From a virus (Duplodnaviria > Heunggongvirae > Uroviricota > Caudoviricetes), in the IMG/VR virus record IMGVR_UViG_2648501400_000008: a stretch of DNA of 11,941 bases. One strand, given 5' to 3'. Each line of letters begins with the position of its first letter. Position 1 is the first letter of the stretch. A model generated the notes under the pieces. The model searched no databases, was not told the DNA's origin, and saw nothing but the letters and a program-made list of their open reading frames with translations. A program made the position numbers and the translations under genes. Positions 7,048 to 9,144 of this stretch are shown here, piece by piece.

Positions 7048-7308
7048 ATGCAATCACCATTACGGAATGTGCGTAAGGCGCACGGATTTACTTTGCAGCA
7101 TGTTGCTGCTGGCGTTCAGGTCAATCCAGCGACGCTGAGTCGTATTGAAAGACTGGAACAAATTCCATCTATCGATCTTGCAGAACGTCTGGCCAATTTT
7201 TTTAAGGGTGAAATCAGCGAAATGCAGATTCTTTATCCGGCACGTTTTCAATCTAGCCAAAACCAGAATGGGTTTAAACCACAGGAACAGGAGGTAAGCC
7301 GTGGGTAA
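7048..7308 (+). CDS. Cro-like XRE-family HTH regulator (86 aa)
   Basis: GGAGG ribosome-binding site at 7038-7042, 5 nt before the ATG; HTH segment FTLQHVAAGVQVNPATLSRIERLE; divergent from the cI-like gene across the operator region. Confidence 0.8.
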   Translation: MQSPLRNVRKAHGFTLQHVAAGVQVNPATLSRIERLEQIPSIDLAERLANFFKGEISEMQILYPARFQSSQNQNGFKPQEQEVSRG

Positions 7309-7858
7309 TCATCACTGGAAAGTGGAAAAACAGCCTGAGTGGTACGTGAAAGCTGTCAGAAAAACTATCGCGGCGTTGCCGGGGGGTTACGCTGAAGCTG
7401 CTGAGTGGCTGGATGTAACAGAGAACGCATTATTTAACCGCCTTCGTGCCGATGGCGATCAGATTTTCCCGCTGGGATGGGCAATGATTTTACAACGTGC
7501 TGGTGGCACTCACTTCATTGCCGACGCTGTGGCGCAGTCTGCAAATGGCGTCTTTGTGTCTCTTCCTGACGTCGAGGATGTGGACAATGCCGATATTAAC
7601 CAGCGTTTACTGGAAGTCATTGAACAGATCGGCAGTTATTCAAAACAGATTCGTTCGGCAATCGAAGACGGTGTAGTGGAACCGCATGAGAAGACAGCAA
7701 TTAACGACGAGCTGTACCTCTCAATTTCGAAGCTGCAGGAGCATGCAGCACTTGTCTACAAAATTTTTTGCGTTTCAGAAAGTAATGACGCCCGCGAGTG
7801 TGCAGCTCCGGGCGTCGTGGCGTCGATTGCTTCTGGTTGTGGAGAAACTAACGCATGA
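7301..7858 (+). CDS. Prophage early protein in the cII position (185 aa), YmfL-like by position and length
   Basis: GTG start with an AGGAGG site 6 nt upstream (7289-7294); overlaps the cro stop and is coupled to the next gene by ATGA (7855-7858). No catalytic motif recognised; the e14 YmfL comparison is from memory. Confidence 0.6.
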
Positions 7859-8193
7859 ACAGTTTAACAACACACTACCGTCGCTCGCAACTGATTGCGC
7901 TTCCTGTACCGGGTGGAAAAGCGAAGGTGGAGTATTGCTATGCAGTAAATGTACCAGGTGACAGGGAAATTGTAACCCACAGCTTTGCTGAGTGGGCTGT
8001 GGGGGATTTCAACCGGCAGAAGGAGACAGTCCTTTGCGACAAGTTAACCGCTGGTTCAAAGATCACTACGGAGTGCCCGTCAGAGTCATTCGTTGGGAGC
8101 CGGAAACACAACGGGTTATCTACCTCCGTGAAGGCTATGAGCATGAGTGCTTCAGCCCGCTCGAACAGTTTCGTCGTAAATTCAGGGAAATAG
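7855..8193 (+). CDS. Small prophage protein (112 aa), possibly YmfM-like (SOS-associated cell-division inhibitor family); C-terminal half uncertain
   Basis: ATG overlaps the upstream stop (ATGA). The N-terminal 45 aa look protein-like, but the C-terminal part is Ser-rich and low-complexity and overlaps a better-looking alternative frame (see findings). Confidence 0.45.
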
Positions 8194-8202
8194 AGGTCGG
8201 TC

Positions 8203-9144
8203 ATGAGCACTAAATTAACCGGCTATGTATGGGATGGTTGCGCTGCGTCAGGCATGAAATTATCCAGCGTGGCAATTATGGCCCGCCTGGCTGATTTCAG
8301 TAATGACGAAGGTGTGTGCTGGCCATCAATTGAAACCATTGCCCGCCAGATTGGCGCGGGGATGAGTACCGTCAGAACGGCTATCGCACGGCTGGAAGCA
8401 GAAGGCTGGTTAACGCGTAAGGCGCGTCGCCAGGGTAACCGCAATGCGTCGAATGTTTATCAGCTTAACGTTGCGAAGCTTCAGGCAGCGGCATTTTCTC
8501 AACTGTCAGATTCTGACCCGTCAAAATCTGACGCATCAAAATCTGACCCGTCAAAATTTGATGCGTCGAAATCTGGCAAAAAAGCGGGTTTTCACCCGTC
8601 AGAATCTGGCGGGGATCCGTCAGTAAAATCAAAACATGATCCGTCAGATAAAAAACCTTCTCGTCCGGACGCTTCGCAACCGGACACGCAGACGGCTGAA
8701 CAGGATTTTTTAACTCGCCATCCTGATGCGGTTGTATTCAGCCCTAAAAAGCGCCAGTGGGGAACGCAGGATGATTTGACCTGCGCACAGTGGCTCTGGA
8801 AAAAAATCATTGCCCTGTACGAGCAGGCCGCCGAATGTGACGGCGAGGTGGTTCGTCCCAAAGAACCGAACTGGACAGCCTGGGCAAACGAAATTCGCCT
8901 GATGTGTGTGCAGGATGGTCGTACTCACAAACAAATCTGCGAGATGTACAGCCGCGTCAGCCGCGATCCGTTCTGGTGCCGTAACGTGCTCAGCCCGTCG
9001 AAGCTGCGGGAAAAATGGGATGAGCTTTCCCTGCGCTTATCGCCGTCCATCAGCACATACACAGAAAAACGCGAAGACCCGTATTTCAAATCCAGTTACG
9101 ACAACGTGGACTACAGCCAGATCCCGGCAGGATTCAGGGGGTGA
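8203..9144 (+). CDS. Lambda O-like replication initiator (313 aa)
   Basis: N-terminal winged-HTH-like segment (…CWPSIETIARQIGAGMSTVRTAIARLEAEGWL…), a repeat-rich linker, and a C-terminus (…QWGTQDDLTCAQWLWKKI…NWTAWANEIRLMCVQDGRTHKQICEMYSRVSRDPFWCRNVLSPSKLREKWDEL) that matches the lambda O C-terminal domain as I recall it. GAGG ribosome-binding site 6 nt upstream. Confidence 0.85.
   Translation: MSTKLTGYVWDGCAASGMKLSSVAIMARLADFSNDEGVCWPSIETIARQIGAGMSTVRTAIARLEAEGWLTRKARRQGNRNASNVYQLNVAKLQAAAFSQLSDSDPSKSDASKSDPSKFDASKSGKKAGFHPSESGGDPSVKSKHDPSDKKPSRPDASQPDTQTAEQDFLTRHPDAVVFSPKKRQWGTQDDLTCAQWLWKKIIALYEQAAECDGEVVRPKEPNWTAWANEIRLMCVQDGRTHKQICEMYSRVSRDPFWCRNVLSPSKLREKWDELSLRLSPSISTYTEKREDPYFKSSYDNVDYSQIPAGFRG
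8503..8580. repeat. Tandem about-15-bp direct repeats (candidate replication-origin iterons) inside the O-like gene
   Basis: Consecutive units TCAAAATCTGACGCA / TCAAAATCTGACCCG / TCAAAATTTGATGCG / TCGAAATCTGGCAAA plus a diverged flanking copy, followed by more degenerate copies and an A/T-rich stretch (8620-8657). They encode the SKSD-repeat linker. Confidence 0.5.

Follow-up and report, generated by a model that had tools for sequence, protein, structure and literature searches.

Overprinted genes are a familiar feature of phages: E of phiX174 lies within D, L of MS2 runs across the coat and replicase genes, and Rz1 of lambda lies within Rz. In phiX174 E the activity resides in the N-terminal portion, and the C-terminal remainder depends little on its sequence. 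Phage early operons, for their part, form translationally coupled gene chains whose members are joined by ATGA or other short stop/start overlaps. Here we describe a locus that recalls both arrangements, at positions 7855-8213 of an 11,941-nucleotide stretch of tailed-phage DNA (Caudoviricetes; IMG/VR record IMGVR_UViG_2648501400_000008), the whole of which we call the window. In it ymfM, a gene known from the e14 element of Escherichia coli K-12, overlaps a gene for a small protein of the DUF4222 family. We propose, with a probability of roughly 0.88, that these are two independent, separately initiated prophage genes.

The closest described counterpart is ymfM (b1148) of e14 in K-12, and the two are one and the same: the reading frame in the window is 96% identical to the common form of 112 amino acids and occupies the same place after ymfL. 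The K-12 element differs in having an oweE/aaaE fusion, the window prophage carrying an intact O-like gene. Ansari et al. (bioRxiv 10.1101/2020.11.19.390815) reported the K-12 gene as the long-sought SfiC, which is induced by the SOS response and blocks Z-ring formation independently of SulA. In that paper ymfM is one simple gene, whereas the window presents two overlapping frames.

For DUF4222, the only characterised member that we found is RgdR (ECs1581) from prophage Sp7/CP-933C of enterohaemorrhagic E. coli (EHEC) O157:H7, a pleiotropic regulator of 99 amino acids that activates LEE1, represses motility and binds DNA weakly and non-specifically (PMC3378721, PMC10877973). RgdR matches the Pfam family at 2e-23, and hhalign aligns it over 46 columns with the family of the window protein (probability 97%, identity 43%). 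However, the RGD motif at residues 20-22 of RgdR (KFMRGDIYRDQYGG), which is needed for activity, aligns with V-N-R in the window protein. RgdR further possesses an N-terminal extension, which bears the RGD, and a basic C-terminal tail of about 30 amino acids, and the window protein, at 59 amino acids, has neither. The window protein shares the RgdR domain but is no RgdR orthologue. The prophages differ as well, that of RgdR being P4-like and that of the window lambdoid, and no filamentation is reported for RgdR.

Results

Two overlapping coding frames

A preliminary description of the window, made from the letters alone, had outlined two frames upstream of the O-like gene, and reading of the sequence together with the list of open reading frames (ORFs) confirms this outline. 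On the plus strand, the ymfM ORF of 112 amino acids (7855-8193; PHROG 1170) begins at ATG 7855 and ends at TAG 8191-8193. Another frame, shifted by -1 with respect to ymfM, is open from GTG 7992, directly after TGA 7989-7991, to TAA 8211-8213. Within it, TTG 8034-8036 is preceded at a distance of 8 nucleotides by AGGAG, as had been noted, here extended to AAGGAG (8020-8025, plus strand). The stop of this frame was said to overlap the start of the O-like gene, and it does so by 11 nucleotides, ending 8 nucleotides past the O start codon (ATG 8203). That the second frame looks coding is borne out by database searches: the product of 8034-8213 (plus strand), 59 amino acids long with a TTG start, matches Pfam DUF4222 (PF13973) over model positions 1-52 of 53 at 68.7 bits (gathering threshold 27; E 3.2e-19) and PHROG 1343 at 2e-34. 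RefSeq annotates WP_001250269.1 with identical ends, and we found 139 homologues of 59-70 amino acids across the Enterobacteriaceae.

The two frames differ in where they are constrained. Codon alignments of 8-10 lineages were used to obtain the ratio of non-synonymous to synonymous differences (pN/pS) and the mean pairwise difference at each codon position. Across the DUF4222 gene, the DUF4222 frame shows a pN/pS of 0.45 and differences of 0.32, 0.29 and 0.58 at positions 1, 2 and 3; the ymfM frame over the same bases shows 1.25, with variation highest at position 2. In the 58 codons upstream it is the ymfM frame that yields a low value (0.52; 0.26, 0.27 and 0.43 at positions 1, 2 and 3), and the other two frames there have values of 0.98-1.02, with a peak at position 1 or 2 and no third-position excess.

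A first scan of viral contigs for diverse DUF4222 loci returned near-identical E. coli-type loci only and was used for population analysis, in which 85 loci gave 52 distinct haplotypes of 359 nucleotides. In the overlap (8034-8190), 13 of the 14 variable sites fall on third positions of the DUF4222 gene (binomial p 6e-6), and the changes comprise 14 synonymous and one non-synonymous when read in the DUF4222 frame but one and 14, respectively, in the ymfM frame. Upstream (7855-8033), 14 of the 22 variable sites, including all high-frequency ones, lie at third positions of ymfM; here the counts are 18 synonymous to seven non-synonymous changes in the ymfM frame, against five to 20 in the DUF4222 frame. 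Since the polymorphic sites of the overlap fall almost without exception on DUF4222 third positions, the Ser-rich end of YmfM is an out-of-frame read of the other gene. Amino-acid selection thus acts on the DUF4222 frame alone in the overlap and on the ymfM frame alone upstream, so that signs of selection are found in each frame where we take it to be coding. Two further ORFs were considered and set aside: an antisense ORF of 90 amino acids (7938-8210, minus strand), on whose first codon positions the variable sites fall, and one of 91 amino acids on the plus strand (7686-7961), whose frame shows a pN/pS of about 1.

The shift in coding quality in the middle of the 112-codon ORF resembles a frameshift by eye, and the preliminary description had considered a frameshift, natural or due to a sequencing error. 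That such an error, or a mutation of recent date, split or distorted one ancestral gene is refuted by the absence of any length variation: the 52 haplotypes contain zero indels, and each of them preserves both ORFs. Some 1,900 complete E. coli genomes, moreover, contain the stretch 7700-8400 (about 1,910 when counting those with at least 80% of it covered, at 95-99.9% identity), and the same two-frame layout recurs in ten more lineages, namely Phytobacter, Raoultella, Morganella and seven metagenomic ones.

Initiation of the DUF4222 gene

Between the two starts that had been suggested for the second frame, GTG 7992 and TTG 8034, the data single out the latter. The TTG, the AAGGAG and the ymfM stop are invariant among the E. 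coli haplotypes, and the start codon is aligned across all 12 of the lineages in which DUF4222 stands at this junction, as TTG in E. coli, as ATG in seven loci (L006, L009, L010, L012, L104, L105, L106) and as GTG in four (L014, L016, L017, L103). All of these lineages have a GGAGG-like purine tract 5-10 nucleotides 5' of the start. GTG 7992 was rejected, as the starts of homologues align with 8034 and the segment 7992-8033 varies non-synonymously in that frame.

These observations also bear on a programmed -1 frameshift, another option of the preliminary description, by which ribosomes starting at ATG 7855 would slip between 7992 and 8033 and produce a fusion of the YmfM N-domain with DUF4222 of about 118 amino acids. 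The geometry would permit it, the DUF4222 frame being -1 to ymfM and open for 14 codons ahead of the TTG, with a GGGGG run at 8000-8004, and databases do contain proteins with exactly such fusions (P0059, P0065, P0030, P0052). However, the fusions are singletons or small clusters of 1-14 members, nearly all from read-assembly collections, and their junctions lie at differing places; being rare, derived from read assemblies and scattered in their junctions, they fit errors or rare mutants. In relatives, the DUF4222 frame is closed just before the start, with stops one codon upstream in L014, three and five codons upstream in L104 and six in L010, the distance reaching 14 codons in E. coli and L012. 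With stops 1-14 codons 5' of the start, no conserved interval remains in which a frameshift could fuse the two products. No X XXY YYZ heptamer occurs in 7992-8036, and the GGGGG run is polymorphic, site 8004 carrying all four bases in the population; such variation is expected of a four-fold degenerate Gly codon and is unlike a slippery site. The downstream frame has a conserved start and Shine-Dalgarno sequence of its own, the fold of 7985-8075 is no more stable than those of shuffled sequences (z 0.22), and in two loci (L099, L102) the N-domain gene and DUF4222 are split by another gene. A programmed frameshift is therefore highly improbable, and the option of a genuine small overlapping gene, also raised in the preliminary description, proves to be the correct one.

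We note a possible 6-bp hairpin at 8019-8034, in which the AAGGAG would be paired with bases up to and including the T of the TTG. Folding of the surrounding 91 nucleotides shows no excess stability over shuffled sequences, and the hairpin is not apparent in the other lineages.

An AlphaFold model of the 59-amino-acid protein, built from a 25-sequence alignment, has a mean predicted local distance difference test score (pLDDT) of 83 and contains five strands and a short helix; the fold predicted for the DUF4222 product is that of a small SH3-like beta-barrel. Foldseek searches with this model gave no significant match and returned only generic small beta-barrels (TM-scores about 0.6-0.7, E above 0.007), among them the KOW domain of Spt5/NusG, Tudor, SH3, the C-terminal domain of KorB and phage DUF1653 proteins. 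Searching the PDB by sequence revealed no relative of the DUF4222 or the YmfM family.

A conserved N-terminal domain in YmfM

The preliminary description held that the 112-amino-acid frame degrades, and comparison with homologues agrees with this: this frame is conserved only over its N-terminal half. The first ~60 residues align well in 21 homologues and the remainder is variable and Ser/Thr-rich. What had not been recognised is that this N-terminal half is itself a real, conserved coding region. By sequence comparison, ymfM encodes a conserved small domain of about 58-60 residues, which in the window corresponds to about amino acids 1-59 (7855-8031, plus strand) and alone in this frame bears the amino-acid-level purifying selection described above; the remaining tail, about amino acids 61-112 (8035-8193, plus strand), follows the +1 frame of the DUF4222 gene.

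The whole ORF matches PHROG 1170 over residues 1-112 (E 3e-70) and the 63-amino-acid family PHROG 20047 over residues 1-61 (E 9e-44), and it lies directly 3' of a CII/CP76-like gene; profile match and position together place it in the YmfM family. The PHROGs database lists the functions of phrog_1170 (112 amino acids), phrog_20047 (63 amino acids) and phrog_1343 (DUF4222) all as unknown. A protein search with the 112-amino-acid frame returned 94 proteins, the divergent ones being 112-117 amino acids long, 45-65% identical and conserved in the first ~60 residues. A profile built on residues 1-65 and run against 1.84 billion representatives recovered 94 clusters. Homologues reach down to 44% identity, and conservation of the N-domain extends as far as Morganella. 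Lengths of these ORFs fall into two main classes in divergent clusters, stand-alone forms of 58-68 amino acids and tailed forms of 108-117, and many stand-alone ORFs are placed identically, after a CII-like gene. Those of 73-100 amino acids, or oddly longer, turned out upon inspection to be structural variants, fusions or ORFs in other downstream contexts, and the N-domain-only search contained no ORF of intermediate length that was ended by a point-mutation stop.

AlphaFold models residues 1-67 of YmfM with three strands and two helices at pLDDT 56-78 and residues 68-112 at pLDDT below 40, from which the tail is predicted to be disordered; the model was too weak for a structure search. As a separate observation, the N-domain profile (7897-8016, residues about 14-54) gives weak multi-stretch matches to large proteins made up of Ig-like repeats (DUF7507, Y_Y_Y), with E values between 1e-11 and 1e-4. 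These could reflect a beta-rich fold or mere compositional resemblance, and we do not interpret them.

Could DUF4222 be the sole gene and the ymfM ORF, its N-terminal part included, an accidentally open non-coding spacer? The annotation pipeline of the National Center for Biotechnology Information (NCBI), PGAP, leaves 7859-8033 without a gene, the 112-amino-acid frame has no match in Pfam or NCBIfam, and AlphaFold confidence is moderate. Against this stand the third-position periodicity and low pN/pS that are seen in the ymfM frame only, the placement of high-frequency polymorphisms at ymfM third positions, and the spread of homologues over 94 representative clusters, many with stand-alone ORFs in the same position. 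In addition, the N-domain gene is retained where DUF4222 has been deleted (see below), and the ORF starts at an ATGA junction, the TGA stop of ymfL (7856-7858) overlapping its ATG, with GGAG 10 nucleotides upstream. We regard a non-coding spacer as very unlikely.

The converse view, that the entire 112-amino-acid YmfM is a conventional protein that depends on its entire sequence, with DUF4222 as a by-product, is adopted by the curated K-12 annotation and by the functional study (bioRxiv 10.1101/2020.11.19.390815), and it would be in line with the maintained length of the ymfM ORF. It is at odds with the tail itself, where 14 of 15 polymorphic changes alter the amino acid, pN/pS between lineages is 1.25 and disorder is predicted, as well as with the stand-alone homologues that have no tail. 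DUF4222, furthermore, has a curated Pfam entry, and one of its members, RgdR, has been characterised (PMC3378721). Taken together, these points make the conventional full-length protein scarcely probable.

Architecture of homologous loci

Divergent loci were retrieved through the N-domain alone, taking one genome per species (Phytobacter L006, Atlantibacter L007, Entomohabitans L008, Raoultella L009, Morganella L010), and further ones through look-ups of exact proteins of the long and short forms. The gene order is the same in all loci: a CII-like gene, the N-domain gene, usually DUF4222, and a replication gene. Wherever DUF4222 directly follows the N-domain gene it is in the -1 frame.

In Morganella (L010), an N-domain gene of 63 codons ends with a TGA that overlaps the ATG of DUF4222 (GCATGAAA), an ATGA coupling junction. 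E. coli and the other long forms have xTG-C at this position, and because TGC (Cys) stands where Morganella has TGA, the N-domain frame runs on for another 52-55 codons. The direction of the change between the Morganella and e14 types can only be inferred. In every tail-bearing lineage examined, the stop of the N-domain frame lies about 10-12 nucleotides or less from the start of the next gene, a distance taken from gene tables for the Logan, JGI and ENA loci and from the translations for L006 and L009. In L016 and L017 the junction between DUF4222 and the O gene is ATGA, and in L100 the N-domain gene and DUF4222 overlap by 17 nucleotides.

The two genes are also separable. In L099 (1194-1913) and L102 (1685-2383) a KilA-N/ANT gene of 232-239 codons stands exactly between the N-domain gene and DUF4222; even with this antirepressor-like insertion, neighbours among the four genes touch or share a few bases. 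In Atlantibacter (L007, 2501-2728) and Entomohabitans (L008, 2501-2737) most of DUF4222 is deleted internally and the N-domain gene is intact, with 75 and 78 amino acids, respectively. The two losses are independent deletions, both of which kept the first and last few codons of DUF4222 and hence its junctions with the flanking genes. At about 8119 (YmfM residue about 88, '...SRKHNGL'), the database variants P0020, P0021, P0023, P0025 and P0028 of YmfM diverge from the common sequence at the same point; a shared divergence point inside the DUF4222 gene suggests that recombination or deletion breaks recurrently here, or that contigs end here.

The open frame of the YmfM tail

Although its amino acids vary freely, the tail seems to be held open by selection, an aspect beyond the preliminary description. 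As a null model for stop codons, synonymous codons of each DUF4222 gene were resampled from the codon usage of the loci. Only 3-14% of the trials gave a +1 frame free of stops over 50 codons, and about two stops are expected per gene. In the 11 tail-bearing lineages no stop is observed against 21.2 expected. Four DUF4222 genes into which no N-domain ORF reads through (L010, L099, L100, L102) contain 13 stops against 12.2 expected, and because of this agreement we consider the model well calibrated. Codon choice at risk sites, i.e., Val, Leu or Ile codons before a codon that starts with A or G, reflects the depletion: GTC and GTT, CTC and CTT, or ATC alternate between lineages and the stop-creating codons are never used, while GTG does occur at tail-frame sites where the next base renders it harmless.

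Pairwise synonymous differences among the 11 lineages amount to 0.49-0.89 and are saturated, so shared ancestry cannot explain the open tail. A bias of the wobble base was rejected as the source of the stop depletion, as the third-position pyrimidine fraction is 0.59 in overlapped genes and controls and stops occur in the controls only. The Ser/Thr richness of the tail was not relied on as a sign of selection on composition; it exceeds the resampled expectation in most lineages, but a C-rich wobble position is a trait of the family (C 0.35 in the controls). For the three lineages found through the N-domain alone, the product of P is about 8e-4. On these counts, selection is likely to hold the ymfM frame open as far as the start of the replication gene and to be indifferent to the amino acids encoded.

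Genomic setting

The locus lies in the region of an e14-like lambdoid prophage that comprises the immunity and early-right genes. First among the genes of this region, in order, is an S24 repressor gene on the minus strand, followed by a cro-like gene (7048-7308) and, on the plus strand, by a gene for a CII/CP76-family regulator (7301-7858; Pfam PF06892, Phage_CP76/CII, E 8e-14) that RefSeq names ymfL. The O-like replication initiator gene with an HTH_36 domain occupies 8203-9144 on the plus strand (Pfam PF13730, E 4e-11). The order in the early-right operon is cro, ymfL, ymfM, the DUF4222 gene and the O-like gene. The ymfM stop (TAG 8191-8193, plus strand) lies inside the ribosome-binding region of the O-like gene, in frame with ATG 8203 and 9 nucleotides before it. 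The top match to 7700-8400 is a food isolate (99.9%), and the K-12 counterpart is the e14 element. Inside the O-like gene, 8512-8575 contains four to five tandem 15-bp repeats (consensus TCTGACCCGTCAAAA), which look like origin iterons within the initiator gene, by analogy with the lambda origin in O.

Annotation and the SfiC assignment

Two annotations of this locus conflict. The NCBI pipeline places a 59-amino-acid 'DUF4222 domain-containing protein' at 8034-8213 and leaves the sequence before it empty, even in a K-12 derivative, whereas the curated MG1655 record has ymfM alone (b1148, NC_000913.3 1203822-1204160; 112 amino acids, 'cell division inhibitor YmfM'). Each thus misses one of two real genes, DUF4222 in MG1655 and ymfM in the thousands of other E. 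coli genomes annotated automatically by PGAP. Full-text literature searches for ymfM and for DUF4222 found no paper that links the two.

The experiments on SfiC used pBAD24 with the ymfM 'open reading frame' and a ymfM deletion (bioRxiv 10.1101/2020.11.19.390815). The cloned ORF, equivalent to 7855-8193, also holds the ribosome-binding site, the start and 53 of the 59 codons of DUF4222, i.e., nearly the entire Pfam domain including the last modelled strand, and a Keio-type ymfM deletion takes out both products. The shotgun clone D1-8E (ymfL 142-185, ymfM, ymfN 1-92) contains the entire DUF4222 gene (PMC3614548), and a screen in UTI89 resolved the ymfN-ymfK region only (PMC6206680). In the published work on SfiC and ymfM we found no description of a mutant that separates the two frames. 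The published clones and the deletion include both products and so do not discriminate between the frames as the source of SfiC. On balance we lean towards the ymfM N-domain protein as SfiC; identity with the DUF4222 protein is possible but unlikely.

Discussion

The evidence assembled here supports two independent genes at 7855-8213. According to this proposal, ymfM would start at ATG 7855, coupled to ymfL by the ATGA overlap, and the ymfM ribosome would read about 52 further codons in the +1 frame of DUF4222 before stopping at TAG 8191, while DUF4222 would start at TTG 8034 off its own AAGGAG. The components, including DUF4222 as an annotated family, were already known. New are the reconciliation of the annotations, the recognition that the SfiC experiments do not separate the products, and the evidence for openness of the tail frame.

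Several points weigh against the proposal or limit its support. The signal in the N-domain is moderate, with a pN/pS of 0.52, and its AlphaFold model is of middling confidence. Eight of the 11 tail-bearing lineages had been chosen for their long ORFs, so unbiased support for the open tail comes from the three genome lineages found through the N-domain and from the bimodal distribution of N-domain ORF lengths. Our literature search found no proteomics or ribosome-profiling data for the locus, and both products are accordingly putative. Finally, RNA structure at both junctions is not beyond chance (z about 0), and the relay set out below is offered only as a hypothesis.

Why would a frame be kept open irrespective of what it encodes? 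One tentative explanation is that the tail serves as a translational relay, which leads ribosomes from ymfL and ymfM to the start of the replication gene. The block can be viewed as a series of ORFs linked by translational coupling. With the layout of Morganella, ribosomes would pass from the N-domain gene to DUF4222 and on to the replication gene through stop/start overlaps; in the e14 layout, ribosomes in the N-domain frame would bypass the weak TTG and arrive directly at the O-like start. A premature stop in the tail would break this chain, and such a relay would account for the fact that N-domain ORFs end at the start of DUF4222 or else close to its end. Alternatively, the open frame may provide a disordered tail of a given length or composition, e.g., for proteolytic turnover of a division inhibitor. 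A combination in which SfiC is, or also requires, the DUF4222/RgdR-family protein and the YmfM tail is open solely as a relay appears rather doubtful to us.

The role of the DUF4222 protein may be connected to replication. The RgdR gene of EHEC Sakai Sp7 (L107, 3720-4019) lies directly 5' of the prophage primase gene, with a 4-nucleotide overlap, and the position of DUF4222 before a replication gene in two unrelated prophage types hints at a replication-linked function.

Compared with phiX174 E, MS2 L and Rz1, the window pair likewise comprises two products in different frames, one with a conserved fold and the other tolerating almost any sequence, and the YmfM N-domain with its free tail parallels the N-terminal activity and sequence-independent C-terminus of E. 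Unlike those genes, the ymfM overlap is a 3' read-on into the downstream gene rather than an embedded frame, and we imply no role in lysis. Because relatives show the non-overlapping ATGA state, the route by which the overlap came about can be seen. As in coupled gene chains, the ymfL/ymfM, Morganella N-domain/DUF4222 and L016/L017 DUF4222/O junctions are all ATGA, and each ORF of the block ends within about 10 nucleotides of the next start; the e14 type departs from such chains by swapping one link for a 52-codon read-through past the start of the middle gene.

These results matter for E. coli biology, as ymfM is listed in the reference K-12 annotation as a division inhibitor and is used as a tool for obtaining filamentous cells. 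The identity of SfiC becomes testable through point mutations that are silent in one frame. For phages more generally, the locus is a clean natural example of how a long overlap originates, by a single-base difference at an ATGA junction (TGA vs. TGC), and the resulting tail frame is apparently selected for openness and not for sequence. If the tail does serve as a relay, it would be an ORF segment that is selected for being translated rather than for the sequence it encodes.

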